A model generated the notes under the pieces. That model worked only from the letters and a program-made list of their open reading frames with translations, searched no databases and was not told where the DNA came from. From Halodesulfurarchaeum sp. (GTDB lineage Archaea; Halobacteriota; Halobacteria; Halobacteriales; Halobacteriaceae): 64,000 nt of DNA. Shown piece after piece: positions 2,770 to 23,135 of this stretch; position 1 is the stretch's first letter; every line of letters starts with the position of its first letter. The stretch lies in NCBI GenBank assembly GCA_034520565.1, contig JAXHNL010000002.1, forward strand, positions 704,001 through 768,000, in the 5' to 3' direction. A program made the translations under genes and the position numbers.

Positions 2770-2842
2770 GGGCCGGTGGGGTAGCTTGGTATCCTTCGGC
2801 CTTCGGGTGGCCGTAACCGCGATTCAAATTCGCGCCGGCCCA
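2770..2842 (+). tRNA. tRNA-Pro(CGG)
   Basis: Acceptor stem GGGCCGG/CCGGCCC-A; anticodon stem CGGCC-TTCGGGT-GGCCG; T-arm CGCGA-TTCAAAT-TCGCG; no intron; CCA not encoded. Confidence 0.97.
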
Positions 2843-2844
2843 CT
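2830..2844 (+). repeat. attL core, 15 bp TCGCGCCGGCCCACT
   Basis: Exact direct repeat of 22860-22874, which lies about 50 bp downstream of the integrase stop. Confidence 0.88.
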
Positions 2845-2906
2845 ACCTATATACCCCTTTTCCAGCCTTCACTGACAGGTTTAGCGGGTTTTCGGGGGTG
2901 GTCGGT

Positions 2907-3016
2907 TTGAGCGTTTCCGAGGACTCTGAGCCCCTGATCTGCAACTACTGTGGGGAGTACATCGAGGAGCCGATGCAGCGGTGTCCGGCTCTCGATGAGG
3001 GGTGTGTCGGCCATGA
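2907..3016 (+). CDS. Small Cys-rich (CxxC...CPALD) protein; possible C-terminal half of an att-split ORF
   Basis: TTG 2907: SVSEDSEPLICNYCGEYIEEPMQRCPALDEG; one extra G in the G-run would give ...VCRP stop. Confidence 0.55.
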
Positions 3017-3232
3017 GGCTGTAGACGGACCTCCGAAATTGTAAACAGCTGAAATCAGCCTCATCCAGCCCCTCGAACTCGAAAACAGGGCCTCAAATCC
3101 GCCCTGTATACACCCTCCCGGGGTCCCGATTTTCGTCTCGATTCCGCCCCCGGGTGGCCGAAGGCACGCGCAACAGGCGGCCGAGGGCCAGCGGGCGGGT
3201 ACGCGGGCGCGAAGCGGCGGGGTGATCGCGGC

Positions 3233-3580
3233 ATGAGTCTCGCCGATGAAGCGGACGAAGCGCGTTCCGTGGCGGACCTGAAGCCGGGCGACACCGCGCC
3301 GGTTGAGAACCAGGACGGAGGGCATAACCGAGCGATCGTCGCCGTGATCCGGGACGAACCGGCTGGCGAGTGTCAGGTCACGCCGCAGAGACGGGACGCC
3401 CCGATCTCGATCAAACAGCTCTGGCGGCCCGTGTCGATCGGAGCCGATGAGCCGGTCGTCGGCGTCAGGTTTGTGAAGGGCGTCGACTGGGACGGCACGC
3501 CGCTCACGTGGACCCAGCGGATCGCGGATTACCCGGCTTCCCGGGTCATGCAGGTGAATTTCGGGGGTGCCGATCGATGA
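3233..3580 (+). CDS. Hypothetical viral protein
   Basis: 115 aa ORF with GGGGTGA SD-like motif; ATGA overlap with the next gene. Confidence 0.7.
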   Translation: MSLADEADEARSVADLKPGDTAPVENQDGGHNRAIVAVIRDEPAGECQVTPQRRDAPISIKQLWRPVSIGADEPVVGVRFVKGVDWDGTPLTWTQRIADYPASRVMQVNFGGADR

Positions 3581-3942
3581 GCACGACAGTCTCCGCCCGG
3601 ATCTCCGACCCGGATCTCGCCAATCGACTCGACGAGGAGCAGGACCGAAGCCAGGCGATCCGTGATGCGCTCCGGACCTACTACGCCGACGATATCGTCG
3701 ACGTCCCGGTCTCCGGCCGTCCCCGAGACGCCTACGACGAGCTGCTCTCGATCACGAACGGCGGGGGGCTGATCCGCAAGAAGGTCGCGGAAACGGTGCT
3801 CGCCCAGACGGTCGGCCTCGAGAAGTCGATCATCAAGCCGACGATCTTCTTCCCGCTCGAAGAAGCGGGCCTGATCCAGCCCCGCCGGACGTGGCGGGAG
3901 GTGTACCTGCTCGTTCGATCTCCCGAGGAGGTTGATCGGTGA
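3577..3942 (+). CDS. Ribbon-helix-helix (CopG-like) protein with a possible C-terminal wHTH
   Basis: MSTTVSARISDPDLANRLDEEQDRSQAIRDALRTYY is an RHH pattern; ATG overlaps the previous stop. Confidence 0.7.
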   Translation: MSTTVSARISDPDLANRLDEEQDRSQAIRDALRTYYADDIVDVPVSGRPRDAYDELLSITNGGGLIRKKVAETVLAQTVGLEKSIIKPTIFFPLEEAGLIQPRRTWREVYLLVRSPEEVDR

Positions 3943-4070
3943 TGCCCTGGACGATCTACCCCTGTTGCGGGCATCACGAATCGACGCGGAAAATCGGGGC
4001 GGCCCGGCGGCCGGTCTGTCCGGCCTGTGGCTCCCAGCAGCGGCTCGTCGAAGGTGCTACGCCGGCATGA
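3942..4070 (+). CDS. Small CPxCG zinc-finger protein (42 aa)
   Basis: MPWTIYPCCGHHESTRKIGAARRPVCPACGSQQRLVEGATPA; coupled to both neighbours (TGATG and ATGA overlaps); below the ORF-track cutoff. Confidence 0.7.
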   Translation: MPWTIYPCCGHHESTRKIGAARRPVCPACGSQQRLVEGATPA

Positions 4071-4900
4071 TCCGGTTTACCCGGCAAGAGGCCCGATACG
4101 CTCACGGCGACCGGTACGATCGGGGGAGTCGATACAACGAGCGGCACCTTCTGGACGTCGAGATCGAGACCCGCTCGACGAACCGGTTCGTCGTTCGGTT
4201 TTCGACTCCGACGAGGGCCATGTCGTCGATCTCGAAGCGACACCGGACGGCTACGTCGGCGAGTGCACCTGTCCCGATCACGACTATCGCGAGACGGTCT
4301 GCAAACACATGTGGGCGGTCTTCGCGGCTCCCGACGTCCCCGTCATCGATGAGGGCGACGACCGGATCGGGAAACGTCCGACGCGGGCACTCACGGACGG
4401 AGGGACCGCGACCGCCTCGACGTCGACGCCGGCGCCACGACCGAACGGCCAGGCACCGACTCAGGGCGAGCTCGTTGAGGAGTGGATGGCCGACCGGTAC
4501 CCGATTCGGTTGGTCGACTGCGAAATACGACGACGCCCGGCTCACGACCGACACGGGCCTCGCGAGGGAGGGCGCACCGGTCCAAATCAAAGGCTCCCAA
4601 GAGCGGGTCCGAAACGGGTACGACCGAAACGGCAATCAGGAATACACCACCGGGAGGCTCACGGCTTGGCGAAACGAGCTGCTCGAACTCCTGGCCGATG
4701 GCGGGGTCTATCTGATCGGCCTCTACCATCCCGACCGCGATCCTCGAAGCGAGGATTTCGTGACTCGCACTCGATGGATCACGCCGGAGGATTTCGGCGG
4801 CGTCCTCGAGGGCCACTGGACCGAAGGCCACCGGCCGAGCAAGGGCGAAAAGGGGCGGGTTCGCTGGACGGCGGTTCTCGGGGGCGATCCCGATGTCTAA
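4067..4900 (+). CDS. SWIM zinc-finger protein, apparently fused to a PD-(D/E)XK-like domain (2 frameshifts)
   Basis: CTCPDHDYRETVCKH SWIM motif, then GELVEEW...DAR...VQIK; reconstructed across frames 3932 and 4027. Confidence 0.6.
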   Translation: MIRFTRQEARYAHGDRYDRGSRYNERHLLDVEIETRSTNRFVVRFSTPTRAMSSISKRHRTATSASAPVPITTIARRSANTCGRSSRLPTSPSSMRATTGSGNVRRGHSRTEGPRPPRRRRRRHDRTARHRLRASSLRSGWPTGTRFGWSTAKYDDARLTTDTGLAREGAPVQIKGSQERVRNGYDRNGNQEYTTGRLTAWRNELLELLADGGVYLIGLYHPDRDPRSEDFVTRTRWITPEDFGGVLEGHWTEGHRPSKGEKGRVRWTAVLGGDPDV

Positions 4901-5153
4901 GGCGGGACGCCGCCCGTCGACAGCCGACGATCGGCCCCGAGTACCCGCGATCGCGGCCCGGATCGGCGAGGATCCGGCCAAGTACCTGCACGAGCCGGAC
5001 GAAACGACCTTCGCGCTGATTCGGGGCATCGACGACGAGACCCGTCTCGATTGCTGGTTTGCGATCGAGGAGGACCTCGGCCCTCGACCGGAGGTTCTTG
5101 CGGTGCTGAACAAGCGACGGGAGGCCCTGAAGGACGGTGATCGCGATGAGTGA
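4893..5153 (+). CDS. Hypothetical viral protein
   Basis: 86 aa acidic ORF overlapping both neighbours in the same operon. Confidence 0.65.
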   Translation: MSKAGRRPSTADDRPRVPAIAARIGEDPAKYLHEPDETTFALIRGIDDETRLDCWFAIEEDLGPRPEVLAVLNKRREALKDGDRDE

Positions 5154-5614
5154 CGGAGCTTATGAAGATGTTTGTTCCTCAGGCAGAAAATTTTCTGGAC
5201 GAAGCCGCGTTAAGGGAGAGCTCCCGCAGGCGGCACATTCGTTTGGTTTCGTCCGAGAAACATGGGCGTTTTTACAGGCTCTGCACTGGAAAAACTGGTA
5301 TTCCGGTGGCATCGGCACGAGACAATTCGAACAGCTATTACAAATTCATTGCGCCGTCGACGGAAAGATCGTTCCCTCGAGAAACCATATACTCTATGTC
5401 CAGAAAAACAACCCGCGATCGAGTCTGGCTTCATGTGCTCGAAAAGTCCGTCAAGCAAAACGAGGTCGTCACAGCATCAACCGCAGCGCAGGCCGCCGAC
5501 TGTTCGAGGAAAACCGCTCGGGAAGTGCTCAAGGTTATGGACCGTTCCCGCTGGATTCGAGAGCGATCGACCGATACGGGTGTAGAATACCATCCCGAAT
5601 ATCGGCTGGAGTAG
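5150..5614 (+). CDS. Hypothetical protein with C-terminal HTH (may be two genes; second start MSRKTT near 5396)
   Basis: VVTASTAAQAADCSRKTAREVLKVM is a helix-turn-helix pattern. Confidence 0.55.
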   Translation: MTELMKMFVPQAENFLDEAALRESSRRRHIRLVSSEKHGRFYRLCTGKTGIPVASARDNSNSYYKFIAPSTERSFPRETIYSMSRKTTRDRVWLHVLEKSVKQNEVVTASTAAQAADCSRKTAREVLKVMDRSRWIRERSTDTGVEYHPEYRLE

Positions 5615-5701: not shown

Positions 5702-6298
5702 ATGACGGATTCGGAAGTTGCGTGGCTCAAGCCTGAGCAGGTTGAGGCGATGCGCGACGTCGCTCACACGGGGCGGAACGGTCACCGTGACGAAGCGCTT
5801 GTCACATTGCTTTATGACACCGGTCTTCGTCGAGCAGAGGCCGCGGCCCTCGATCGGGAAATGCTCGACCTGGATGACGGAACGCTGTTCGTCCCCGGCC
5901 CGATCCAAAAGGACTACCCCAACGACAACTCACCACCACCAGTGACGATGGAGCTCGACCAGTCGGGAGATCTACGTACAGTTCGAACGCTCCGATCCTA
6001 CCTTTCGTGGAGAAACGACGCTCGGTCACCACTATGGACGGGAAGAGCATCACCGCGTTTGTCGGGTAAGAGCATCAACAACGTGGTAAACGTCTCGCCA
6101 AGCGGGCCGACGTCCAGCCTCACCTCCAAGTAGGCCGCGGTGATCCGGAGGACATACTCAGCGCATACGCTCCGCCACTCAATTGCTTACCGCATGCTTC
6201 GCGTCGAAGAAAAGGACATCTACGCGGTGAAGAACCGGCTTAGGCACGCTTCAATCTCGACAACGGACCGAAAGTACGCTCATTTGGATATGGTATAA
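5702..6298 (+). CDS. Short (catalytic-domain-only) tyrosine recombinase, XerC/D-like (frameshifted near 6090-6135)
   Basis: RDEALVTLLYDTGLRRAE; downstream frame SAHTLRHSIAY...RLRHASISTTDRKYAH gives the full R-HxxR-H-Y set. Confidence 0.88.
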
Positions 6299-6320
6299 TG
6301 TCGTAAAAGAATACTTCATC

Positions 6321-6924
6321 TTAGAATGTTGGAATATCCATATTACGATCTTGATTTCCTAAGTGAAACTCAGTAGATTCCGTCATGTCTCTAATATTGT
6401 CTAATATTGAAAACCGCTGTATATCTTCATACGAATTCCCGGCAGCATCCTTATAACTAAATTCGACCACTAGCCTATCGCTACTGTTGTATTCCTCTAT
6501 CTTGTTTTCAATTTTCTTCTCAGTTCCCGAAACGCCAAAATCTGACCCGGAAGGAATTGGAAAATCAAGATTGTATACTTCTTCAGGAAGTACAACCTTT
6601 TTCCCCAGGTCTGATTATCGTCTTCGCTTTCTTCAAGATAAATCAACTAGCAGAGACATCTTGCGCTAATCCACCACCTATATTCACAAACGATAGACAA
6701 AAATTTGGCCCGTGGAAGTTTCTAACAGCTGCCTTTAATTTCGGTTCATAATTCAATTTTCTAGTTTTAGTCATCTCATCGGTTTGTGCGGAGATCTCGG
6801 CTGTTTGGTTTTTCGTCTGTAAATAATATTTCCAAGTTGCTATCGCCAAAACAACAGTAAAGAAGGCAAGAACGACACTTGAAGCAATTTGAATACCGGT
6901 TGCGATCTCGTTAGCAATCACCAT
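6321..6924 (-). CDS. AT-rich cargo protein with N-terminal TM helix (frameshifted)
   Basis: ORF 6643..6924 with a hydrophobic N-terminus; an open frame continues to about 6321 (...VVEFSYKDAAGNSYEDIQRF...). Confidence 0.55.
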
Positions 6925-7124
6925 ACCCAGATCACATTCCCCAATCAGGTATTATTTTTGCTGTTGCAGCATTTAATTAATTGAGAGAAATTGGTCTAAA
7001 AGTAAGTCGTAGCGAAGATACTAAACACGTTACAATCCATCAAGGACCTTGCTCTAAATCATTAATCGGACGATTATCTTACACTCAAAACCTTTTGTAA
7101 GCCGCTAATCATTCACTGGAAAGT

Positions 7125-7533
7125 TCAACCATATATTATATAGGGGCTGCTATTCGCAAAGAAAATCCAGCCACTACAAAAGCAAAACCGAATATCGAGT
7201 CGGCAACATTCATTACATCAAAATATGATTGGCGACGTGAGGGACTTGCAAATCTCTCCAGTCCTTCGCTCAACAAAATCAAGTGAATGAACTCGCATCC
7301 TCAACGCGACGAAAGCCAATAAAGAAGCACCCAATGCCATGAATCCGAGTCCCGTAGTACCGGTGATCTGGTGATACGTATACAATCCCAAAAAGCAAAA
7401 CCATATTCCTAATGCTGCTACTGATTAGAGACTTACACATCAATTGGACTCGGCCAATATTCCGATAAAATGATATTCCTTGGTACAAATGTCCCAATAC
7501 CGTATCTGCAAGAATCAGTCTAATTCGGTTCAT
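7125..7533 (-). CDS. AT-rich cargo membrane protein (frameshifted, 3' end approximate)
   Basis: ORF 7279..7533 plus a downstream hydrophobic frame (...DSIFGFAFVVAGFSLRIAAPIII). Confidence 0.4.
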
Positions 7534-7621
7534 GATTTATTTCAAGATTCGAGATTAAATAAAAGCGTACATTGAAAGGATCGGGGAAATCTTTTCCATA
7601 TTCCAAATCTCTCGAATATTA

Positions 7622-8022
7622 ATGTTTGAAGACACTCCCAATAGCGAGGAACCAGACACTGGGTAGAGGACCGAATTCATGAAATATATAACTATGAGGA
7701 CTTGAAGGATTGCGATATTGATTATCTGCACAATCGCGAATTTGGTTTAAAGGCTAATATGAAAATATTTGAAACGGGTTTTCCTGATGAAGACGTTGAG
7801 GATCATCTTATAGCAATCACAGATGTGGAGGATGATTTTCTGAGTCTAGAAGCGCTTACCCCTGCCGAAAAAATGAGGCTACAATTTCTCAAAATGGAGG
7901 CTGAAAAAGAGATTCACAGGGCAAAAGGTCACCGGATGAATTTGCGAAGGGAACACAGGAACAAAATGGCCAATGCGTTTGCTGACCTGGTGAAGTCAAT
8001 TGGGGATCTAATTCCTTGGTGA
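7622..8022 (+). CDS. AT-rich cargo hypothetical protein (5' part frameshifted)
   Basis: ORF 7702..8022; likely true ATG at 7622. Confidence 0.5.
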
Positions 8023-8166
8023 TTTCGAGCCACCCTCACATTAAATAAAGAACTTTGCTTTCGTACAGTCTGTACGAAAACGGTCGTTTTCGGACGCCCT
8101 CAAATCACTCTCTGAGCGGTTCGAGGGGCCGCATGTCCAATCGGTTACGTTGGTCGGCTGGGCTAT

Positions 8167-11927: not shown

Positions 11928-11928
11928 T

Positions 11929-12297: not shown

Positions 12298-12395
12298 GGG
12301 TCGGCCCTCCCGTCGGCGTCGAACCGGCGGCCCTTGGCCTGTTCCTCCTCGGTCTCGTCCATGTCCTCGATCTCGATCTTTGCTTTCTCGGCCAT
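12294..12395 (-). CDS. 33 aa acidic protein
   Basis: MAEKAKIEIEDMDETEEEQAKGRRFDADGRADP; overlaps both neighbours. Confidence 0.5.
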   Translation of the reverse strand: MAEKAKIEIEDMDETEEEQAKGRRFDADGRADP

Positions 12396-12646: not shown

Positions 12647-12649
12647 GCG

Positions 12650-13374
12650 TTACTGCCGTCCTGCGATCGACCCGATGAAACCACCGAGTCCCTGAATTTC
12701 GTCCCTCGCCCGATAGATGGGGAGGGAGGCGGGCGTTCGCCGGGGTGGCCGAACCACCTTCCTCGGACCAGCGAGACCGCATAGGGTGCGTTCATGCGGA
12801 TTTCGAGGTCCCAGTCGGTCGGTACGACGCCCTGATACGGGTGCCGGAAATCGAACTCCAGCGGGTTCTTGTGCTGGTCGCGGAGGTTCTTGAGCCCCAT
12901 GTCGTCCTCGTCCAGCGGCTCGGGACGTTCCGGGGCGAGACCTTCCGAATGACGAGGGTGGCCTGATCCTGCACCATATACCAAGCGTGGAGCGTGGTAT
13001 CGGTGCCGGTACTGGTGAAATCGAACTCGTTGGCGTCGTAGTCCACCGAGTCCGGCGAGACCCGAGTCCCGCCCTCGAACAGCACGAGGTCGTCGGCCAC
13101 CGTGTCGGAGTTCACGAGATCGTGGAGAGGCTGAACGTCTCCGTGTTGTCAGCGGTGCCGTCGGTCGTGAAACTTTCGTAGGCCGGAATATCGGCGTCGT
13201 AGGGGACGCCTTCACGACGATCGGGCGCTCGGCCTTGATCGAGGCGACGACCGACTCCTCGTCCACCGTGTTGGCTGCCGGTCCATGTCCCGACCGGAGA
13301 CGCGATCGGGCGACCGGCACGTTGGCGAGTGCCTGCCGGATGCGTTCGGCTTCCGATTTGCCCTTTCCCGGCAT
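12650..13374 (-). CDS. Large major capsid protein (SH1/HCIV-1 VP4-like), frameshifted
   Basis: Reconstructed segments ESFTTDGTADNTETFSL, VSPDSVDYDANEFDF, LHAWYMVQDQATLVIRK and WDLEIRMNAPYAVS are colinear with my recollection of VP4-type MCPs; about 240 aa; directly follows the small MCP. Confidence 0.75.
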
Positions 13375-13377
13375 GAT

Positions 13378-13881
13378 TCACACCACCCGGACGGCGTTGC
13401 GGTTGATGAGAAAGCCGACTGCGACCATCGATCTGGTCCACCGACAGGATGGAAACGTGCAGGTCGTCGATGTCCCGGACGGTGAGCTGGGGCATCTTCC
13501 CTCTGCGAGTGCCTGATCGGTGTTCTTGAGCTGCACCTTTGTCCGGTCGATGTACTCCTCGTCCTGCTGCTCGTTCAGGCTGAGAGCGTTGAACGGCCGG
13601 ATATGGTCCAGTTTGAAGGTGACGACCTGCGGCTGATCCATCCCGGGAGCTTCGTACTGGAAGGCCAGCACGGTGTCATCCGGGAGGGTCTGGCCGTCGG
13701 CCCGCCGGAGATCGGCGGCGATCGGGAAGCCACGGGCCGACCCCGAAGAGACCATTCCGAGATGACGAGCGCGAGCCCGTCCATCGGGGAGAACGTCAGG
13801 ATCGGCGACAGGACGCCCGTGGTGTTCGTTCTCGGTCGCTTCGACTTCGGTGCTCGTCTTGTTGCTGAGCTGCTTCGTCAT
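13378..13881 (-). CDS. Small major capsid protein (P23-77 VP16 / SH1 VP7-like), frameshifted
   Basis: FPIAADLRRADGQTLPDDTVLAFQYEAPGMDQPQVV...FNALSLNEQQDEEY matches the recalled VP16 pattern (P..L.D.NG..LP..T...YY.LSE.QQ.D..F); about 167 aa. Confidence 0.8.
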   Translation of the reverse strand: MTKQLSNKTSTEVEATENEHHGRPVADPDVLPDGRARARHLGMVSSGSARGFPIAADLRRADGQTLPDDTVLAFQYEAPGMDQPQVVTFKLDHIRPFNALSLNEQQDEEYIDRTKVQLKNTDQALAEGRCPSSPSGTSTTCTFPSCRWTRSMVAVGFLINRNAVRVV

Positions 13882-13883
13882 CA

Positions 13884-14171: not shown

Positions 14172-14327
14172 GCTACACTCGACACCTTCGAGAGTGGCTG
14201 TAAAGGGCGAGCAGGCGAGGAAGGGAGCTATTCGGCGCGAATGGTGAAGTTTACTCCCGAGGTCTAATAATTGATTTTGGGCCGTTTCCAGCCCTAGCTT
14301 TTTCCTTGTAGGATTTGATCGGTGACT

Positions 14328-14779
14328 ATGACGTCCGCTTCAGACATTGAGCAAACCCTTCTCAGTTCAAATCCATCAGATTGGATATGAATGAGGTCGA
14401 GTGGGGCTTAGCAAATGAAATCGACGAGATGGGTCCCACCCGAGTTGTAGCAGTTTATGAACAAGATGTTCAACTTCGTGTTGAACAAGGAAAGGTGGCT
14501 GTCCAGAACTTCCAAGAAGAATGGAGTGATCGGTACCCAGATAATGAGAATAACACGAGCTTTAGCTTCTGGGTCATTTATGATAGATCTCCAATTGATC
14601 ATCAAGTCATTGCTATCAGTCGATGGCGGTAGAGCATGGATTCCAGTCCCTGACCGCCCTGAATCTCTGACGAACCGTGGACGATTTCCCCGTACAAAAA
14701 CGCAATCGGAGGTGCGGTAAATAGGGACTATTCCTCTTATCAAGATCACCTTAGGAGGGCCGGTATTGAGGTGAGGTAA
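14328..14779 (+). CDS. Lower-GC cargo hypothetical protein, opposite strand to the virion operon (frameshifted)
   Basis: Joins ORFs 14381..14632 and 14457..14720: FQEEWSDRYPD...SVDGGRAWIPVP...HLRRAGIEVR. Confidence 0.55.
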
Positions 14780-14808
14780 CGAAGAATTTCCTTCAATTCA
14801 TCATAACC

Positions 14809-14943
14809 TCAGTCGTGTTCTCGGAGGAGCTCATCGATTACCTTCGGATTTGAAGGTTCGTACCCAAGCTCTTTCGCCAAATCTGCCTTTATCTCTTGAA
14901 ATCGGCTCGCCTGATCGCCGTATAACTTGATATGTTCGACCAT
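14809..14943 (-). CDS. 44 aa putative DNA-binding protein
   Basis: MVEHIKLYGDQASRFQEIKADLAKELGYEPSNPKVIDELLREHD; TAATG overlap with the ATPase stop. Confidence 0.55.
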   Translation of the reverse strand: MVEHIKLYGDQASRFQEIKADLAKELGYEPSNPKVIDELLREHD

Positions 14944-15717
14944 TAGAATGGCTGCGCAAGTTCGTGATCTGATCCACCGAAATGGGGGCTCTGCATGTCG
15001 ATATTGGCCGAATTCTTCCGTACCATCGTCCCCGAATCGTCCGAATAGATCCACTCGGACATGACGACCTGGCCGTTTTCCTCCCGCTTCCGGAGCGGTA
15101 CCGGCCCATCCTCGGAGTGATGCACCGACTCGGGAAGGTCGTAGATCGGGCCGTCGGCCAGGGGTTGTGCACCTCTTCATTGTACTCGGTCCCAAGCCGA
15201 TTTCGATCGCTTCGGTCCTTGAACCCACCGTAGAGGGAGGCGTTCGTCTGCGAGATGACCGTGTTGTGCAGCTCCTGGAAGCCGCTGGGTGATCCAGATC
15301 GAGGAGACGCCACCCCGGCCGGTCGTCGCGAGCAGCTTGATCGCCTCGAGGAGCTTGGACTGTTGATCGGCCACGGAGTGCGCCTCGTCGACGACCACGA
15401 GCCCCTGGCCGTCAAGCAGCCGCATTGCCGCTGCGACGTCCTGCGGCGACCTGCCGCCAGGCGCTGGTCGAGCAGCTCGGGCAGGTGCGGACTGTCCCGT
15501 TCTGTCGAAAGACCTCAGCCCAGGCCTCGGGTGAGGAGCTGTGCCTCCCGGTCGCCTACGGCCACATCGGACGCCAGCCCGCTCTTTACCAGCCCCGAAA
15601 CTCGTCGTTGTAGTCGAGGATCGCGGCGTACTCGACGTCATCGAGGTTGTCTTCGACGGTGGCCTGCCCGACGTCGGATTTGCCCCATCCGCTTTGGGCG
15701 GCGATGAGCTGGCGCAT
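14943..15717 (-). CDS. FtsK-HerA superfamily genome-packaging ATPase (frameshifted)
   Basis: Walker A AQSGWGKS at the N-terminus, ILDYNDEF, Walker B LVVVDEAH, ATTGRG arginine finger, WITQR motif; about 260 aa. Confidence 0.88.
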
Positions 15718-15718
15718 G

Positions 15719-16287
15719 CTACTCGGCGAGTTCTTCGAGGGCGTCCTCGGCCGCCTGAAAGTTCGCCTCGAACACCTTGCACTGGATGGCCGTGGCACCG
15801 ACCCAAGCGACGACCTCGGCGACGAAGGTCCGAAGGTCGACGTCGAACTGCTGCCGGAACGCTGGACGGCGATCTCCGCGTCGGTCATCCCCTCGACCTG
15901 CTCGGGGACCCTGTTCGCGGTACATCTGCCGGCAGTCCCTGATCCGCTGCTCGATCTTCGCCGTCCATTTGCAGGTACTCGACCAGCCGGTCGGGCCCGT
16001 CGACGTGCCCGCCGATTACCGTTGCGGCCCACCGCTCGGCCAGCTGCATTTCTGCGGCGGCTTCGATGAACCCGAGGAGCATGTCCTGGCGGGCGTCGAC
16101 TGGCACCGGGTCGAGATCGACGTCCTGGTCGTGAGCGTCGGCGACCTGATTCACCCGCTCGATCAGCGCGGCCTCGTGCTCGGCGAAAATCCGGGATGGC
16201 CCGTGTCGCGCCCATCTCCGCGATATCGATGGACTGGATGGCCTGCTTGATTGCCTGCTCTTTTGCCGTATTGAAGGGGTTACGCAT
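15719..16287 (-). CDS. Hypothetical viral protein (frameshifted)
   Basis: Starts MRNPFNTAKEQ, ends ANFQAAEDALEELAE; abuts the ATPase. Confidence 0.5.
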
Positions 16288-16792
16288 CGGATCGCACCCC
16301 CGGCAACGTCGGCGGCCACTCGATCGAGGAAGTCGGTCTCGTCACCGATACAGTCCCGGCGATGATAAGGGGAGCCAAATAGGACCTGCTGGCCGGGGTC
16401 CATCTCGCCCATGTCTCGCTCGGCAGCCCACTCGTCGACTGCCTCGTCGAGCCCAAGATCGTGAGCCATCGCCTGGGGATTGGTCCCCTCCATATCCCCG
16501 CCTTGGCGCTTGACGACCGTTGAGAGGAGGTATCCAGCGTCCGGACGTACATCTCACCCCACCCCACGCCGCCCGCTCGGCTGGTCGACTGTGACAGCTC
16601 CTCGGTGGTCTGCTCTTCTTCTCCGTCGGATTCTTCGTCCTCTTCTTCGGCACCGGCCCCGGCCGCCTCCTCGATCTCGTCGGCGACGGCTGAAAGGTCG
16701 GCCATCTCGTCGCCCTCGATCTCGGGAACGTCTTCGTCGACGGTCTCGGGCTCCGGCTGCTCGACGTCGACGTCTTCCTCGGCGGTGCTCAT
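16280..16792 (-). CDS. Acidic protein with C-terminal hydrophobic segment (frameshifted)
   Basis: MSTAEEDVDV...WGEMYVRTL...GLDEAVDEW...QQVLFGSLIIAG. Confidence 0.5.
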   Translation of the reverse strand: MSTAEEDVDVEQPEPETVDEDVPEIEGDEMADLSAVADEIEEAAGAGAEEEDEESDGEEEQTTEELSQSTSRAGGVGWGEMYVRTLDTSSQRSSSAKAGIWRGPIPRRWLTILGSTRQSTSGLPSETWARWTPASRSYLAPLIIAGTVSVTRPTSSIEWPPTLPGVRSDA

Positions 16793-17537
16793 GCCCCAGG
16801 CCGGCTCCATCCTCGGGGAGTTGGCCTCTTGGTCGATGTCTTCGTCGGTCACCATCTCGGTATGGTCGGGATCCTGAGAGGATCGCTCTCCCCGTCGCCC
16901 ATGTAGCGATCGAGAAGGACCAAGATCACGACCAGACCGGCCAAGAGCGAGGGTCGTCTTGTCGACCGAGGGAACGAGCGCCCCGACCGCCCCGGAAAGG
17001 GCCCCTTCAGGGCCCTCGGTGAGCCCCTTCGAAGCGCCTTTCGAAGGGCTGCCGTCCCTGGCTTTGCCTCCCTCGTCGTCGGTCTCCTCGTCGGAGGGGC
17101 CGCTACCGCCCTGACTACCGCCCTGATACTGTGCTCGTTGGCGCTCGATCTCGTCCTCGGTTGGCATGTCGTCGTTTTCAGGGGCCCCTTGCAGGTCCCT
17201 CGTCGGGGCCCTCGTCTTCCCCTTCGAGGTCCCTGCCGTCCCCGGCTTCGGCCCCTTCGTTTTCGGTCTCCTGGTCGGTCGATTCTTCCGAGGGGGCGCT
17301 ACCGCCCTTCTCGGGGGCCCTTGCAGGGCCCTCTTCGGGGCCCTCGGGGGCGCTCTTCGAGGACGCGCCGTCCCCGGCTTTGGGGCCTCGTCCCCTCGGT
17401 CTGTTGCCTCTTCATCGAGACGGGCCCGGATAGCGGCCCAAGGGGTGGTCGTTGCTGGCGTTGACGTGCCCCTGAAGATTGCTTATCGCGGGGAAGTCGC
17501 GGCCGCATTCGGGGCACTTGATGGGTGTCTCAGTCAT
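16789..17537 (-). CDS. C2H2 zinc-finger protein with acidic EGP repeats and a TM segment (frameshifted, ends approximate)
   Basis: MTETPIKCPECGRDFPAISNLQGHVNASNDH; GGGCCC-rich repeats at 17000-17400; hydrophobic stretch near 16920. Confidence 0.5.
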
Positions 17538-17559
17538 TCGATAACTGCGTGCATTGGAT

Positions 17560-17748
17560 TCAATTGAGAAGCCGTCCGAGATAGGCAGCGGCAAGCACCC
17601 GGATTATTTCGCCGTCTGGGGGTTCATCGCCCCAGAGTCGAACGTCCTCCTCGATGCGATCGAGGTCATCGTGGATCTGCTCTTTCGCCGCTTCGAAGGT
17701 TTCCGCCTGATCTTGGTTTGAGAATGCGATCTGCTTCGTTGGACTCAT
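17560..17748 (-). CDS. Small hypothetical protein
   Basis: Intact 62 aa ORF with ATGA overlap. Confidence 0.6.
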   Translation of the reverse strand: MSPTKQIAFSNQDQAETFEAAKEQIHDDLDRIEEDVRLWGDEPPDGEIIRVLAAAYLGRLLN

Positions 17749-18509
17749 CCGGGAGGTCCTCTTTCGTGATTGATTCGCCCCGAGTTCGTCGAACGTGAGG
17801 GTACCTGGCCGTACTGATCGCTGATATCGTTAATCGCCGCAGCGGCTCGTTTGGCCTCGCCCAGGCCGGCTTTGAACTGCGTCCATTGGCTGCTCAGGCC
17901 CTGGTACGGCCCGGAAGCCCACCCGTAGAGGGGTCGGCCTCTTCGTCGTCGAGAATGTTCTCGACCTGTTCCTCGGAAAACCCGCAGGACTCGCTCAGGA
18001 ACTCGCAGGCGTCGGGATCGCCGTGACGGCAGTAGCCTTCGGCGTGGTTGCACTCCTCGGCTTCCGCCGTTCGTGCAGCTCGACCGGCTCGTTCGACCCC
18101 GCTCTCTTCGCTATCGAGTTGCTTTCCGCCGATCGGGTAGCTCGTTCGTCGAAGATCGAGCGGTGTTCGTCGACTTCGAGAGTGGGGTCGAAGTACGACA
18201 GCCAGTCGTAACCCCCTTATCCAGAGCAATCCCCTTCACCGCCTGAGCTTTCGGCACGTTGACGCCGTCTTTCGAAAAGTCCAGCCGGTCGCGCTCCCCG
18301 TCGTCGAGGGGCACCTGACCGGACTTTTCCCCCTCTTCGGCGACCTCATCGAAGGCCGCACGTTCGGCCTCTTCGATCACCCGATTGGGGCCATCGCCCC
18401 GGAATTGGACAGTCTTGAGCCGGGCGTCGTCGTCCGGACAGATCGCGTCGGGATGCTCCTCGCGGAAGTGGTCGGCGGTGGCCTTGTGCTCGAATTCGAC
18501 AGCAGTCAC
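17745..18509 (-). CDS. Conserved-looking viral protein with a Cys cluster (frameshifted)
   Basis: Joins ORFs 18111..18509, 17894..18229 and 17745..18053: GQVPLDDGERDRLDF...DWLSYFDPTLEVDEH...CNHAEGYCRHGDPDACEFL. Confidence 0.55.
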
Positions 18510-18599
18510 AGCCCTTCCCCCGCTCCAATTATGTGCAATTCCTTGGAGATGTGGTGATAGTGGCCCGGACAGTCGGGAACCGGGCAGGCAACAGGCGGA

Positions 18600-18822
18600 T
18601 TACTCGTCGCTCCCATCGGTCTCCTCGACCCACTTGAATTGGCTTTCGTCGGGGTTCTCCTCGGTCGCCGTTCGATGGCTGCGGATCTCTTCGTAAGCGG
18701 CCCACGCGCCGGTTTTGGCGTCGCAGGCCCGTCGCCAGGACCCAATAGGCGACCGCGAAAGCGGCCACGGCGAACACCAAAATCAGCTCACTTTCTCGAA
18801 AATCGAGGCTGTATGTCACCAT
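18600..18822 (-). CDS. First gene of the leftward virion operon, small TM protein (frameshifted)
   Basis: MVTYSLDFRESELILVFAVAAFAVAYWVLA; followed by a tiny CPxxxCxxH ORF ending at 18506. Confidence 0.5.
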
Positions 18823-18842
18823 ACAGTCGGGTGTTTCGACTA

Positions 18843-18862
18843 GATTTGTATAACTTTGTTGT
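18843..18862 (-). promoter_or_regulatory. Putative BRE/TATA promoter of the virion operon
   Basis: Minus-strand AACAAAG-TTATACAA about 25-30 nt upstream of ATG 18822 (leaderless spacing). Confidence 0.5.
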
Positions 18863-19018
18863 AATTAATAGATAAGTTATTAACCACGTTTTGACATGGG
18901 AAACGGACCTAGGTCGCAAAAGTTTAGACGCCCTTCTATCCAATACTGGGCAGTAGAAGGGCCGAAAAGGGGAGATTAGAAAAACCATCCCAATGCTTTT
19001 GCGTTAGGGTAGTGAAGG

Positions 19019-20466
19019 ATGAGTCAGGTAGTAAAGCAAAGTGCAAACTTTCGATGGGAGCTGGGCTTAGAACCCAAATTCCATCTACTCCTAGCAGGAT
19101 GGAAGCAGGAAAAGCATGACCCCAGAAATCCGGACGTTTGAAGAGCGTAAAGAATCGCCAAATCAGGGGAAGAAGCATCTCTAATTGTTCGGGCAAGTAG
19201 CTCACAAACTGATCTTGAGGGTGCTTTAGAGGCAATAGGGGCTGCGGTTAGGCCCATTTCAGATGATCAGTACAAGGTGGTCATGCCGGAAAGCGATCTC
19301 CACCGTTTAGAAGGGATCTCTGGGATTGAGCAGATCGAAATTGAAATCGAAGGGGAGCCTTTAAGAGGGAAACCTGAGCTCCCAGTTCGCTATGATTCAG
19401 TAAGGGATCTGCGAACTGGGTTATTGAGGCATACAGACAGATCTCCAATATTAGCCTCTTATGAGGTCCCTGAGGGAAATGTGGATATTGCCATAGTGGA
19501 TTCTGTGTATGAACTCGAATCTTTGGAAGGTTGGGACCCAGGATTTGACACAATCGCCGAAGAAGATTATACGGAAAGTGACGATGAGGTTTCTACTTCA
19601 ATTCACGGTTGGCATATTTCAAATTTGATCAGTTTCTTTATAGATCCAGAAAGAGTCACTTTTCATACGTACCGTGTGGTCAATGAGGATGAAGAAGAAT
19701 CAATGAATCAAGTCTAATCGAGGCTATAAAGTCGGCCCGAGATGATGGGGTCGATTTGATTAATCTATCAGTAAGTTTTGATCATATTGGTTCAAGGGTT
19801 AAACAATGCACACCTACTTCAACAATTGTGGTATATGCTCACGAGATAAGAAAAGCAATAGAAGATGGGATTACAGTCGTAGCTGGTGCAGGGAATGATT
19901 CAACATCTGAGAAGACATCCTGTCCAGGCGCGGTAGATGAAGTCATCGCTACAGCAGGTTACATCCCAAAGTGTCCCAATGGGCCCACTGGACCAGGATC
20001 AATCTGGATGTATTATGACGATGACGAAATAGAGGCAGACCCATTGGGAATGACACCAATTTGTAGTATGCAAGGGTGTGGCTATACCGAAATGTGTTCT
20101 GAAAATAGGGAGGATATTTATTGGGAGAATAATTCCGAACATGAAGGGAATAAGCCCGATGTGGCTGCCCCAGCAGCAATAATCATGGGGGGTGAACACG
20201 TTTCAGTTAATCCCGGGTTTATTGGTGGGACGAGTTATGCTGCTCCTATTGTAACTGCACAAATAGCAAATTGGTTACCTGTGTTCAAGTTTGAAGATAT
20301 CACATTAATACCCCAAGAAATCAGAAACGGTATTCGAGCGGCAAATAAAGATTTGGATACTGGGGAAAACCTAAAATTCGACGGAATTAGTGCATTCGAA
20401 GAGATAGGAGCGACATATAACATTCAACACGAAGAGTCCTCGGTTGATCTTCATCAGCCCCGTTGA
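19019..20466 (+). CDS. Subtilisin-like serine protease (S8), AT-rich cargo (frameshifts near 19170 and 19715)
   Basis: Asp IAIVDS, His IHGWHIS, oxyanion VVAGAGND, KPDVAAP, Ser GGTSYAAPIV; prodomain-like N-terminus; no signal peptide seen. Confidence 0.85.
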
Positions 20467-20479
20467 GAATTCCGGATTC

Positions 20480-20764
20480 CTAGCCGAACCCCTCAATACC
20501 CGATCCACAGTCGGCAGGCCGGTACCTCGCGTCGATCTCCTCCTGGAGGTAGAGCTGCCGTTCATCGTGAGCTCGTACATCTCGTTATGAATCGGCGCGA
20601 TCATGCCGGCGTACTGGAGTCTTCCACCGCTCCCCGATCCGTCCCGTCGAAGCGGTGAACTCTATCGCTTCGGCCATCATCGTCGGCGTTCCCCAGCCTT
20701 CACTGTCGAGGTGCTCGAGGATGCGTTCGTCGACTTGCTCCATCCAGTGAGCCGACCGTCTCAT
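20480..20764 (-). CDS. PhiH1-repressor-like winged-HTH protein (frameshifted)
   Basis: MRRSAHWMEQVDERILEHLDSEGWGTPTMMA...YAGMIAPIHNEMYELT. Confidence 0.7.
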
Positions 20765-21072
20765 ACGTGATTTTCGTCCTCGGAGGCAGTTGGTCCGGGG
20801 ATTCGTCGACCTCTGGGATCTCGTGGGGCGTCTTCGGCGGTGTTGATCTCGCCGTCGAGATATCCTCTCCCGTTCGGTAATGGTGTAGACTCCGTTTCCA
20901 GAGATCGTTTGGAAGACCGTGTTTAGCGGTTTTCAGAGCCCGTTGGGAGGTGTCCCCGAGTGTACTGGATACCCGCGTCCACCATTTCTTTAGGCCGGCC
21001 TGAGCCATTTTCGCGGATATATTCGAGAATCCGGTCGTCTGCCAAAACCATCCAATCTCCCGATCTTCTCAT
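20761..21072 (-). CDS. PhiH1-repressor-like winged-HTH protein (frameshifted)
   Basis: MRRSGDWMVLADDRILEYIRENGSGRPKEM...GVYTITERG. Confidence 0.75.
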
Positions 21073-21147
21073 TAGTAAATAATTAACTACTCGGGGGATA
21101 TTGTTGTTTGGGTGGGTGAACCCTCTATCCTTAGATCGGTAAACCAT

Positions 21148-21173
21148 CCGCCGATAGTTATATTAATCGGCGG
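21148..21173. promoter_or_regulatory. Operator-like inverted repeat enclosing a TATA box
   Basis: CCGCCGAT-AGTTATATTA-ATCGGCGG in the divergent intergenic region. Confidence 0.6.
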
Positions 21174-21192
21174 TTAATTGTTTGCTAACGCA

Positions 21193-21393
21193 ATGGCTCG
21201 AAGAAGCCTATCGGTGTCCATCTCCATGCCGGTCGAGATGGACGGAAAACTGGCAGAAGAGGCCCGAAGACACGGGATGAGCTACTCGGAATATGTCAGG
21301 CACATCCTGAGAGAGCACGCGATCACTCCGTTCAATTCGCCGAGCATTTCGCTCGAAGAATTGGAGTCAGAACGTCAGGAGGGGGCTGCCTGA
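21193..21393 (+). CDS. Ribbon-helix-helix regulator
   Basis: SVSISMPVEMDGKLAEEARRHGMSYSEYVRHILRE. Confidence 0.85.
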   Translation: MARRSLSVSISMPVEMDGKLAEEARRHGMSYSEYVRHILREHAITPFNSPSISLEELESERQEGAA

Positions 21394-21474
21394 ACCATGT
21401 GCACTGGTGGAGCCCCCAGTCCAAGAACGGCGAGCACGGCCGTAAAACCTCCGGCGAGGAGATAATCGTCGCCG

Positions 21475-21762
21475 GTGACGAGGGCGAGATTTTGGAGGCC
21501 TGAAATGAGGGGCGCACCCCTCACGTACGACGAGCCCGACGCCCGAGCGCGACGGGCACGGTCCCGCTTTGCCGGGTCGTCGGGTCGACCATGTACGTCC
21601 CGAAAAACGCCTGCCCCTACTGCGGCGAGGAAGGCGGTCGGGATGCGTAACTGCACCCATCCGGTGATCCAGTACGACGAACGCGAGGAGCCCTACTGCG
21701 GCGCTTGTGGGGCGATGCTGGGGCATCGCTCCGCGTCCGATATCGGGATCGCCGAGACATGA
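21475..21762 (+). CDS. Small CxxC zinc-finger ORF(s) upstream of the integrase
   Basis: ACPYCGE and PYCGACG motifs in different frames; ATGA overlap with the integrase start. Confidence 0.45.
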   Translation: MTRARFWRPEMRGAPLTYDEPDARARRARSRFAGSSGRPCTSRKTPAPTAARKAVGMRNCTHPVIQYDEREEPYCGACGAMLGHRSASDIGIAET

Positions 21763-22808
21763 CCGATGGAGAGACGTCGCGACGATCCGACCGACCTCTC
21801 CCTCGAAAGCGGTATCCCGGTATCTCCACGTCGAGCCCCGGACTCGACCGAGAAGAGCATTCACGGGTGGGAGTACCGCCTGAAACCTTCGTCGAGTGGT
21901 GCGAGCCGTCGGGATCGAGCGGTCGGCGAGCTGCGCCGGTACGATCTCGACGAATACTACGAGCTCCGGAGCGCGGAGATCGCGCCGGCCACCCTCGAGG
22001 GCGAGATGTGGACGCTCAAGATGTTCGTCGACTTCCTGGGTGATATCGGGGCCGTGGAGTCCGACCTGGACGAAGCGGTTCGTATCCCCGATATCGACCC
22101 CGAGGATCGATCGAACGATACGAAGCTCGAAACCGACGCCGCACTTGCCCTGATCCAGTATTATCGGGATTCCCCGAAAACTACGCGACTCGGGCCCACG
22201 CATTCCTCGAACTCCGGCGTCGACGGGGCCCGGCAGGGCGGCCTCCGGGCGCTCGATATTCGCGACGCCGAGCTGGATGACAACCCGTACGTTTACTTCC
22301 GGCACCGGCCGGAGCAGGGCGCCCGCTCAAGAACAAACGGAGCGGCGAGCGGCCCGTGGGACTCACGTCCGAGACGGCCGACGTGATACGGGCCTCGTCG
22401 ATGGGCGCCGGTACGGTCCACGACGACCAGGGGAGGCAGCCCCTACTCGCGAGTGCCAAAGGACGCCCGACGTCGAACACGTTTCGAAATTGGACTACAT
22501 GGCAACTCAGCCGTGTCTTCACTCGGCCTGTCCGCACGGGAGGAACCGGGAGACGTGCAAATTCGTCGCCACAACCACGCTTCGATACCGAGTTCCCGAA
22601 GTCCGCACCAAATTCGAACCGGGACGATCACCTGGCTGTTGAACCTCGGCTGGCCGCCGCAAGACGTCGCCGAGCGTGTCAATGCCAGCGTGAAAACGAT
22701 CGGAAGCATCACGACAAGGCCGATCCCGACGAGCGCCGCCGTCGGCTTCTCGATCGAATGGAGGATCGACGTCGACCACTCGTTAACAGTCTCAAAATAG
22801 CACAATGA
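21759..22808 (+). CDS. SNJ2-family tyrosine integrase (multiple frameshifts)
   Basis: GARQGGLRALD, FRHRPEQG, TQPCLHSACPHGR, PSSRSPHQIRTGTIT, ERVNAS, C-terminal RMEDRRR; att repeat just downstream. Confidence 0.9.
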
Positions 22809-22859
22809 CATTACCAAAATCGCAACATCTGCACGCACCGCCACGAAACCGATTCCACG

Positions 22860-22874
22860 TCGCGCCGGCCCACT
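22860..22874 (+). repeat. attR core (15 bp)
   Basis: Exact match to 2830-2844. Confidence 0.85.
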
Positions 22875-23135
22875 TTTCCCACCGTTTTTACCGAGGAGCG
22901 GTGCGACTCCTCGAGTCGCGCCGCGAGTCCTCCGGTGGGAAATTGCCACGGGAATTTGAATTAGGGAACAAATCTTCGATTTGTGAGTGAAATTCAAATT
23001 CGCGCCGGCCCATTCATTCCCCACCTTTCGCTGCGCTCGGTCGCACAGCGACCTCGGCTCACGGCGTTTCGCGCCGTTCGTCCAGTCAGCAAGGCCGCCG
23101 GCCTCGCTCGGCTCGCAAAAGCTGGACCAAAACGG
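22875..23135. repeat. Palindromic intergenic block with a second copy (21 bp, 22992-23012) of the tRNA 3' end
   Basis: TTTCCCACCG/CGGTGGGAAA, GAATTTGAATT/AATTCAAATTC, ACAAATC/GATTTGT; 22992-23012 equals 2822-2842. Confidence 0.7.

Follow-up and report, generated by a model that had tools for sequence, protein, structure and literature searches.

Layout and decay of the provirus

The 64,000-nt stretch of Halodesulfurarchaeum sp. DNA analyzed here (contig JAXHNL010000002.1, positions 704,001 to 768,000; hereafter the window, numbered from its first letter) is high-GC haloarchaeal DNA with a single tRNA gene, tRNA-Pro(CGG), located by ARAGORN at 2770-2843 on the plus strand. An exact 15-bp direct repeat, TCGCGCCGGCCCACT, occurs at 2830-2844, comprising the 3′ end of this tRNA gene and one further nucleotide, and again at 22860-22874. 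The DNA delimited by these attachment (att) cores, 2845-22874, is 20,030 bp long (20,045 bp with both cores included) and has a GC content of 59%, compared with about 65% for the chromosome. It carries disrupted homologues of the packaging ATPase and the two major capsid proteins (MCPs) of an icosahedral virus and, at its right-hand end, a 2.4-kb module consisting of two phiH1-type repressor genes, a divergent ribbon-helix-helix (RHH) gene, a small CxxC open reading frame (ORF), and a Cys-rich tyrosine integrase gene. A first-pass annotation made from the sequence alone had reported these module components, the tRNA att, and the link to an icosahedral virus, and all of them were found in the present analysis. 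The features that bound the element are as follows.

2770..2843, plus strand: tRNA-Pro(CGG), the integration target, whose 3′ end carries attL (ARAGORN)
2830..2844, plus strand: attL core, 15 bp, identical to 22860-22874
2845..3044, plus strand: left end of the provirus, with the distal half of a frame that is whole only in the circle and ends in a CxxC...C motif (in-silico junction)
22860..22874, plus strand: attR core, 59 nt past the integrase stop codon
22875..23012, plus strand: older scar outside the provirus, consisting of a spacer of about 115-117 bp and a 21-nt copy of the tRNA 3′ end at 22992-23012 (comparison with congeners)

When the window was searched with the 14-nt att core, allowing up to two mismatches, six matches were obtained, compared with a mean of 1.63 in shuffled sequences, and 0 of 100 shuffles reached six. 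No att-like copy was detected between 2844 and 22860 in this search. The tRNA 3′ end is present three times, at 2820-2844, 22850-22874, and 22990-23014. A provirus-free genome of the same genus (G010; C1:143328-143468) has the tRNA gene, a spacer of about 115 bp, and a 21-nt duplicate, and is 87% identical to window positions 22850-23056; the third copy is therefore an older scar outside the provirus. In two further genomes of the genus (G004 and G020), which have neither spacer nor duplicate, the site is empty and the tRNA gene directly abuts the host sequence that lies beyond the third copy in the window. The shared spacer and duplicate resemble what would be left of a previous integration at this tRNA gene after its reduction to the two arms.

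Relatives were obtained by searching the DNA of 401 genomes belonging to the class, from which 12 loci were fetched because they matched the window (left end/capsid region and integrase on one contig). When attR and attL of the window were joined in silico, a 95-aa open frame ran across the att core. In three of six relatives (G335, 88 aa; G225, 128 aa; G297, 66 aa), the frame across att ends in CxxC...CPALDEGVCRP. In G321 and G137, the CPALDEGVCRP peptide is encoded just inside attL, and the across-att frames found there end otherwise; in the in-silico junction of G128, the peptide was not seen. Close to its last residues, the frame of the window departs from the common ending; by eye, the cause seems to be a one-base difference, which alters the C-terminus. 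At the DNA level, window positions 2929-3030 are 81-84% identical in several other genomes.

The right-hand module consists of the following features.

20483..20764, minus strand: phiH1-type winged helix-turn-helix (wHTH) repressor A, with two frame breaks (ORF 20585-20764, 59 aa: phrog_2440, E 1.2e-12; three-frame reading)
20800..21147, minus strand: phiH1-type wHTH repressor B, 3 frame breaks (phrog_2440, E 1.6e-10 on ORF 20923-21147; frame path)
21148..21193, no strand: candidate divergent promoter/operator (palindrome search and by-eye alignment of the intergenic region in nine relatives)
21194..21393 (alternative start 21178), plus strand: RHH (CopG-like) gene, first of the integrase operon, apparently intact (Pfam RHH_1)
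21591..21762, plus strand: remnant of a small CxxC...CxxC ORF, 1 frame break (two frames), directly upstream of the integrase (by eye)
21766..22800, plus strand: tyrosine integrase pseudogene of the SNJ2 family with about 8 frame switches and His at the catalytic Tyr position

The extents of the two repressors (about 20483-20764 and about 20800-21147) were read across frames against the intact repressors of the relative G297, which are 125 and 109 aa long (phrog_2440, E 7e-24 and 1.5e-31). Orf4 of the pleolipovirus SNJ2 is 30-38% identical to the repressors of eight related loci, with E values down to 6e-10. The interval from repressor B to the start of the RHH gene (46 bp) contains an 8-bp inverted repeat, CCGCCGAT / ATCGGCGG, with a 10-nt TATA-like spacer between its arms (21148-21173), and the leader after this repeat is nearly identical among the relatives in the by-eye alignment. 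In SNJ2, according to the available part of the report, the phiH1-like Orf4 represses the divergent int operon via a palindrome beside the TATA box (PMC10123103). By analogy, we infer that the inverted repeat at 21148-21173 may be the repressor operator. The RHH gene scored 25.4 bits against Pfam RHH_1 (cut-off 20.5, E 1.3e-5), and its product is 39-61% identical to that of the gene at the same position in nine relatives. The small CxxC ORF parallels the CxxC genes of the alphapleolipovirus Humcor2 in its position directly upstream of the integrase, the likeness seen being one of position.

The integrase of the window is 42% identical to that of Humcor2 at the amino acid level (tblastn, E 1e-55) and 69% at the nucleotide level (blastn against a phage collection), and 72% identical to that of its nearest intact relative, G330, over 289 alignment columns. 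The intact G297 integrase (361 aa) matches 12 records of the phage collection; its identities to the integrases of named viruses are listed below.

Humcor2, alphapleolipovirus: 59.5%
LSV-48N (PP151251.1), lemon-shaped Haloferax virus: 51%
HRPV9, pleolipovirus: 40.5%
Halfgib1, pleolipovirus: 38.4%
SNJ2, pleolipovirus: 37.8% (E 7e-65, 91% of the length)
Harhisp1, pleolipovirus: 37.3%
HHPV4, pleolipovirus: 36.8%
HRTV-25 (MZ334521.1), tailed virus: 30.6%

The available text on the SNJ2-type family describes the pattern R..K..HxxR..Y with Glu/Asp-I replaced by Gly/Ala and His/Trp-III by Ala/Val, and gives identities of 34.6-88.8% to Int-SNJ2 for its members (PMC5861418). The window integrase has kept the Arg (GARQGG), Lys (LKNK), and HxxR (PHQIRTG) motifs, and the Cys-rich insert ends in the HxxR motif. 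Counted in the alignment, a Gly lies three residues past Arg-I and an Ala nine residues before the Tyr position, both in the window and in its relatives. The catalytic pentad R...K...HxxR...Y is incomplete in the window, which reads KHHD at the position of HYD in the 13 other alignment rows shown. The int stop codon and the att core are 59 nt apart in the window, as against 55 nt in Humcor2 and a range of 54-80 nt among six relatives. Judging from homology and motif pattern, the integrase belongs to the SNJ2-type family by descent and is predicted to be non-functional.

The capsid genes were located with proteins of Haloterrigena jeotgali icosahedral virus 1 (HJIV1; Simuloviridae) as tblastn queries, and all lie on the minus strand between the att sites.

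12775..13275, minus strand: large MCP gene, at least 2 frames (tblastn with HJIV1 ORF23; tblastx against G297)
13427..13832, minus strand: small MCP gene, 3 frames (tblastn with HJIV1 ORF22; tblastx)
14940..15804, minus strand: packaging ATPase gene, 2 frames (tblastn with HJIV1 ORF20; tblastx against G297)
17939..18500, minus strand: HJIV1 ORF16-like structural-protein gene, 3 frames (tblastn, blastn, phrog_22825, tblastx)

The large MCP was matched by ORF23 at 12933-13189 (E 1.6e-18, frames -1 and -3; tblastx against G297 in frames -1, -2, -1) and the adjacent small MCP by ORF22 at 13427-13752 (E 4e-8; tblastx frames -3, -1, -2). The ATPase, which has the place upstream of the MCP genes that characterizes the FtsK/HerA-type packaging enzyme of this virus group, was matched by ORF20 at 14946-15717 (E 1e-15, frames -3 and -2), together with a weak terminase-profile match in PHROGs, and the ORF16-like gene at 18127-18497 (E 3e-23; phrog_22825, E 9e-13; tblastx frames -3, -1, -2). 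Blastn of 15000-22999 against the phage collection returned solely the integrase (Humcor2) and one 160-bp HJIV1 match in the ORF16-like gene; the same search with 8000-15999 returned no match. Eleven intact large-MCP homologues were aligned, and the first of them, from G297, was modelled (predicted local distance difference test score, pLDDT, 78). The top seven PDB matches of this model are capsid proteins of HHIV-2, P23-77, SH1, and HCIV-1, with E values of 1.4e-9 to 4e-8 and template-modelling (TM) scores of 0.52-0.64, and the next match has an E value of 0.016. The icosahedral-virus reading thus holds at the fold level for a relative, the check covering the large MCP of G297 alone. On these homologies and this fold, the capsid block is of the halopanivirus type.

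The first-pass annotation had described the module as driving an icosahedral virus, a wording that did not survive the frame analysis: frame splits affect the integrase, the ATPase gene, the two repressors, and the two MCP genes, and the catalytic Tyr is replaced by His. Frame breaks in almost every gene were absent from that annotation. About 14 breaks were counted in the 2.4-kb module. Of the approximately eight frame switches in the integrase, four follow from the frames of the tblastx high-scoring segment pairs (HSPs; 1, 1, 1, 3, 3, 2, 1, 3), two from an excursion into frame 3, and two were identified by eye. Every hallmark HSP (ATPase and MCPs) is split in the window and confined to a single frame in 11 of the 11 relatives that carry these genes. 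Coding-like open frames cover 17% of the provirus, compared with 38-65% of seven intact relatives (25% in G203), and 85-100% of the host flank (about 43 kb of the window), in which open frames reach 983 aa. This metric, based on GC at third codon positions, was applied to the window and GC-matched relatives only, its genome-wide use being confounded by low-GC islands. In contig C2 of the genome that contains the window (G000), such islands (43-57% GC; 1-70000, about 520000-530000, and about 1380000-1390000) have kept long open frames and probably represent other foreign DNA; low values of the metric elsewhere in the genome are therefore due to these islands and not to broken genes.

From the boundaries, gene content, and frame breaks, we consider, with a probability of about 0.8, that 2845-22874 is one decayed provirus of 20,030 bp and that the 2.4-kb stretch at 20480-22874 is its right-hand lysogeny module. 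Because its integrase has about eight frame switches and no nucleophilic Tyr, the provirus is a relic that cannot excise by its own enzyme. For this genome, it is an ordinary dead provirus at a tRNA gene; its insertion can be dated after the split from the congeners, and a 20-kb stretch without long genes is explained.

Intact relatives and the integrase tree

Among the 12 fetched loci, which were selected for matching the window so that the counts among them are not frequencies, single-frame HSPs for the ATPase and for each of the two MCPs were found in 11, an integrase similar to those of SNJ2 and Humcor2 in 11, and capsid genes together with the integrase in 10. In seven capsid-bearing loci, a 13-21-bp repeat of the 3′ end of the flanking tRNA gene lies just past the integrase and delimits units of 17.1-20.0 kb, which are located at tRNA-Pro(CGG), tRNA-Pro(GGG), tRNA-Ala(GGC), and tRNA-Ala(CGC). 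Like the provirus of the window, these seven intact relatives are integrated in the chromosome. By tblastx, the window is collinear with the G297 element in its tRNA gene, inverted capsid block, repressor pair, and integrase. Since intact copies with the same module occur in many other haloarchaea, the window provirus is a decayed example of a widespread type and not a one-off hybrid.

A window-type RHH gene stands beside the repressor pair in nine loci (G038, G128, G137, G184, G203, G225, G321, L071, and L072). Eight of these show the integrase, and the sequence of L071 stops before it. In G297, G330, G335, and G094, the repressor pair is present and no match to the window RHH was detected.

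A less biased survey used large-MCP patterns only on a one-genome-per-species collection and yielded 23 loci with 10-kb flanks. An SNJ2-type integrase lies within 10 kb of the capsid genes in seven of them and 11-14 kb away in three more (L048, L067, and L069), giving 10 of 23; the latter three integrases were seen in overlapping fetched loci, the overlap being confirmed by exact match. A tRNA gene was found in 13 of the 23 loci, with a SWIM-type early gene beside it in 12 and the tRNA gene only in L065. Five loci from Natrinema and Natrialba (L056-L060), whose MCPs are 83-95% identical to those of HJIV1, have neither tRNA gene nor integrase in reach and may be episomal. Overall, cassette-bearing proviruses were found in at least seven haloarchaeal genera, at tRNA-Pro, tRNA-Ala, and tRNA-Val genes.

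Two loci differ from this arrangement. G203 (L019, C6:74000-93000) has a 15.5-kb element with a tRNA-Pro(CGG) att, SWIM and sigma-like early genes, a repressor pair, an RHH gene, and an SNJ2-type integrase, and no tblastn match to the ATPase or either MCP was obtained in it; it is either a capsid-less derivative or a carrier of very divergent capsid genes. In G038 (L028, C15:170000-189999), two SNJ2-type integrases at 5340-6350 (plus strand) and 6552-7565 (minus strand) are arranged tail to tail within 3776-10000, each with its own repressor pair, which suggests two elements integrated against each other beside the capsid block.

A quick IQ-TREE phylogeny of 24 integrases, rooted on HRTV-25, with X at the breaks of the window gene and support from the Shimodaira-Hasegawa-like approximate likelihood ratio test (SH-aLRT), placed the window integrase with those of G297, G330, G335, and G203 (SH-aLRT 97). 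This group is sister to Humcor2 and the capsid-linked L054 (SH-aLRT 99). Together with homology and motifs, the tree agrees with the earlier assignment of the gene to the SNJ2 clade. Capsid-linked integrases are interleaved with those of pleolipoviruses and the lemon-shaped virus, and the label "capsid-linked" changes at least five times on well-supported branches. From this topology, the integrases follow the tRNA target rather than the virus type, as also reported by Wang et al. in the part of their paper available (PMC5861418). The same text lists SNJ2-type integrases in 33 pleolipoproviruses and five related "novel MGEs" (mobile genetic elements) of unknown kind and describes the integrase, auxiliary factors, and att as a module exchanged among diverse haloarchaeal MGEs (PMC5861418). 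Our tree fits such an exchange. The proposal that module exchange had produced an integrating halopanivirus is accordingly supported by the interleaved tree in its first part; the product is not singular, the cassette being the standard module of widespread proviruses.

The designation "pleolipovirus-type" in the first-pass annotation was too narrow. The integrases of LSV-48N and HRTV-25 share the Cys-rich insert of this family, which consequently spans four virion morphotypes, and because pleolipoviruses have the cassette in common with a lemon-shaped virus and a tailed virus, it is a shared exchangeable module and not a property of pleolipoviruses.

Comparison with known viruses and proposed working

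The module resembles that of SNJ2 and Humcor2 in integrase homology, motif pattern, Cys-rich insert, and an att core in the 3′ end of a tRNA gene downstream of int. The SNJ2 layout of repressor, divergent operon, integrase, and att is described in the available portions of PMC10123103 and PMC5861418, and the phiH1-like repressors found here are likewise homologous to Orf4 and divergent from the int operon. Humcor2 (MW344764) has the same tRNA-Pro target in the part of PMC7911831 available, where the attP of pleolipoproviruses is also placed inside a coding sequence that extends from the integrase gene to the CxxC protein gene and becomes split when the virus integrates. The attP-bridging frame into a CxxC protein is thus common to those proviruses and the one studied here. 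Unlike in SNJ2, the repressor gene is doubled, an RHH gene takes the place of the Orf3/Orf2 accessory genes, and the integrase and repressors of the window are pseudogenes. The RHH gene and small ORFs occupy the Orf2/Orf3 position, and accessory genes of that kind, being present in only 5 of 38 MGEs, are not strictly defining for the family in the available text of PMC5861418. The cargo also differs from that of pleolipoviruses, being an ATPase and two-MCP icosahedral module in which no VP3-, VP4-, or VP8-like genes were matched. When 18 Humcor2 proteins were used as tblastn queries against the window, the integrase alone matched and no pleolipovirus core gene was detected; there is therefore no pleolipovirus remnant beside the capsid genes.

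The cargo resembles that of the Simuloviridae (SNJ1, HJIV1, NVIV1; Yingchengvirus), in which homologues of the ORF16-like gene, the packaging ATPase, and the small and large MCP genes stand in the same order. Further points of likeness are a SWIM zinc-finger gene, an early gene encoding a sigma-r4-like helix-turn-helix protein (in the intact relatives), and the size, 17-20 kb here and 16-19 kb in the family. In contrast, the MCPs of the integrated forms with a tRNA gene or integrase in reach are about 28-55% identical to those of HJIV1, and the window, G297, and G330 have a capsid block that is flipped with respect to the regulators.

Integrated relatives of these viruses have been described previously. 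IHP and HaloMukP1/P2 share genes with the betasphaerolipovirus SNJ1 (PMC4284463; also cited in PMC4958249), and HalaCibP1, HalaPauP1, and HaloLacP1 are earlier integrated sphaerolipovirus- or SNJ1-like proviruses (PMC5332951). In Halomicrobium mukohataei and Haloarcula marismortui, elements related to viruses and plasmids (ViPREs) flanked by tRNA-Ala genes carry SNJ1 homologues and an integrase, with a phiH-like repressor in one of them (PMC3622292), and a 2026 survey recorded 10 Singelaviria provirus viral operational taxonomic units (PMC13573593); these statements, like those on IHP and the HalaCibP1 group, follow the portions of the sources available. The earlier proviruses resemble ours in that a tRNA gene and an integrase gene enclose ATPase and MCP genes of the SNJ1 or SH1 type, and some of them are regarded as decayed. 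They differ by description, the available passages leaving the integrase family unstated and describing neither a cassette of repressor pair, RHH gene, and int nor an att-bridging frame. The premise of the first-pass annotation, that the integrase family was defined on SNJ2 while SNJ1 lysogenizes as a plasmid and SH1-like viruses are lytic, leaves out these integrated SNJ1- and SH1-like proviruses, as far as the available text of PMC4284463, PMC5332951, and PMC3622292 goes. Both integrated SNJ1-like proviruses and exchange of the SNJ2-type module are already published; in the literature searched, we found no paper linking SNJ1-like proviruses to the SNJ2-type integrase family. The provirus of the window is thus a decayed representative of a group that is widespread and has been described in part.

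From the intact relatives and the SNJ2 precedent, we infer a possible mode of operation covering operator binding, operon structure, excision, and particle formation. Two phiH1-type winged-helix repressors would be transcribed leftward from a short intergenic region in which a TATA-like element is flanked by an inverted repeat, and the operon of RHH gene, small ORF, and integrase would be transcribed rightward from the same region. Repressor bound at the operator would silence the integrase operon during lysogeny. After de-repression, the SNJ2-family integrase would recombine the att cores of 13-21 bp, so that a circle of 17-20 kb is set free and the tRNA gene is made whole again. Circularization would fuse the frame that starts past the integrase gene to the CxxC...C protein encoded inside the other end, and expression from the circle would supply the packaging ATPase and a pair of single-jelly-roll capsid proteins.

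Many intact SNJ1-like proviruses regularly carry this same lysogeny cassette as their module for integration and immunity, and one small cassette gives four virus morphotypes access to the same tRNA sites. As a tentative proposal, to which we give somewhat less than even odds as a whole, the tRNA-integrating SNJ1-like proviruses that carry the cassette of repressor pair, RHH gene, and SNJ2-type integrase and the att-bridging CxxC frame may form a widespread, unclassified lineage of icosahedral membrane viruses that lysogenize in the chromosome and are sister to the episomal Simuloviridae. Their cassette may have been swapped repeatedly with pleolipoviruses, the lemon-shaped virus, and possibly tailed viruses, and G203 may be a step toward an integrative plasmid. 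The findings also suggest that the purely episomal description of simuloviruses by ICTV, the international virus taxonomy committee, covers only part of a natural group. The intact loci are candidates for induction and for a first cultured integrating member of this capsid lineage.

Left arm, cargo, and alternative readings

The remaining recognizable features of the provirus lie in its left arm and next to the repressors.

3233..5614, plus strand: early/regulatory block (RHH-like ORF 3508-3942; SWIM region 4207-4323; wHTH ORF 5150-5614)
5702..6298, plus strand: XerC/D-like short tyrosine recombinase with a frame split near 6130 (5702-6130 by Pfam Phage_integrase, E 2.7e-8; the rest by eye)
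6300..8040, no strand: low-GC stretch without a recognizable gene, cargo or secondary insertion (composition, about 40-43% GC)
19277..20466, plus strand: low-GC subtilase (Peptidase_S8) fragments in two ORFs, a cargo remnant (Pfam, E 2.2e-9)

Pfam scans of 121 ORFs and PHROG scans of 93 ORFs of the region were mostly blank. The SWIM zinc-finger region, a frame-split ORF, had a Pfam E value of 4e-4, under the cut-off, and a tblastn match to HJIV1 ORF8 (SWIM) with E 1.7e-7; the RHH-like ORF 3508-3942 matched Pfam RHH_1 with E 3.5e-3, also under the cut-off. The short recombinase is without an N-terminal domain. Its homologues in L071 (6402-6779) and L072 (6130-6507) are 62-63% identical, are placed between the capsid block and the repressors, and are additional to the SNJ2-type integrase; dimer resolution is one possibility for its role. 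Low-GC stretches were found at 6300-8040, around 14,000-15,000, and at about 19,000-20,500, with 40-51% GC in the first and last. The stretch 6300-8040 contains only small ORFs and gave no Pfam or PHROG matches and no convincing flanking repeats. The subtilase match spans only profile positions 115-267 of 288, and the GC content there is 0.45-0.51.

It could be argued that the provirus is intact and inducible and that its frame breaks are assembly errors, such as long-read consensus indels in a heterogeneous or poorly covered region. The marker completeness of G000, in two contigs, is 80.7%, compared with 98-99% in congeners, and at least one break is a single-base difference from the relatives near a run of Gs. 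However, the roughly 43 kb of host flank in the same window keeps its long open frames, the change from Tyr to His is a substitution and not an indel, gene parts are missing or strongly diverged, the embedded subtilase is truncated, and regions with low values of the coding metric elsewhere in the genome are low-GC islands and not broken genes. With the breaks read in one assembly of 80.7% completeness, assembly error stays as a minority explanation, which we regard as improbable. An accidental tandem at the same tRNA gene, of a pleolipovirus remnant and an unrelated halopanivirus remnant, is more improbable still and is already largely refuted. The three copies of the tRNA 3′ end, the second, short recombinase at 5702-6298, and the best viral match of the integrase, an alphapleolipovirus, could be taken to point to it. 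The third copy was rejected as evidence of this kind, as it lies outside the element and is common to the provirus-free G010, which has the spacer and duplicate; the interval between the two cores is free of att-like sites, the integrase is the sole match among the Humcor2 proteins, the short recombinase also lies inside two relatives, and the unit of tRNA gene, capsid block, repressors, integrase, and att occurs with intact genes in seven other genomes. The earlier view that the whole 20 kb is one element, bounded as in these seven relatives, was thus upheld.

A further possibility is that one provirus was later invaded by small foreign elements at about 5137-8040 (the recombinase and a 40%-GC stretch) and at 19277-20466 (the subtilase). 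This is conceivable rather than probable, and it is compatible with, not opposed to, a single decayed provirus. The sharp fall in GC to 0.40-0.51 in those stretches, the truncation of the subtilase, a left arm about 4.6 kb longer than that of G297, and the different content of the arm from the ORF16-like gene to the repressors would all agree with invasion. On the other hand, flanking direct repeats were not found around the low-GC stretch, and two related proviruses contain the short recombinase as a normal constituent; both points weaken its value as a sign of a nested element. Variable cargo is likewise present at the corresponding place in G297, so that this may be ordinary cargo variation.

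Several observations weigh against the interpretation of the locus as a decayed member of an integrating, cassette-bearing virus group. The Simuloviridae have been described as episomal only (ICTV, PMC12642351), whereas the element here is chromosomal, at a tRNA gene, and associated with a tyrosine integrase. The rolling-circle initiator RepA, ORF2, and ORF3 of HJIV1 had no tblastn match in the window and 12 related loci, RepA had none in the 23 capsid loci, and no homologue of ORF4, a MazE-type lysis-lysogeny regulator, was found by tblastn in the window and related loci; NVIV1 is likewise without RepA (ICTV, PMC12642351). SNJ2 Orf2 and Orf3 (gp2 and gp3) had no tblastn match at E ≤ 0.01 in the window and 14 related loci. 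The CxxC ORF and the operator were assigned by eye or by pattern reading alone, the frame breaks were read in one assembly, and the 12 fetched loci were chosen for their likeness to the window. The short second recombinase and the three low-GC stretches could mean later insertions, and no excision, repression, or particle is reported for this provirus group in the literature searched.

In the intact relative G297, the interval from the capsid block to the repressors (L015 15641-17527), where the window has the subtilase fragments, carries cargo genes for a HicA toxin, a serine resolvase/invertase, and a protein of the DUF7387/PadR-like kind.

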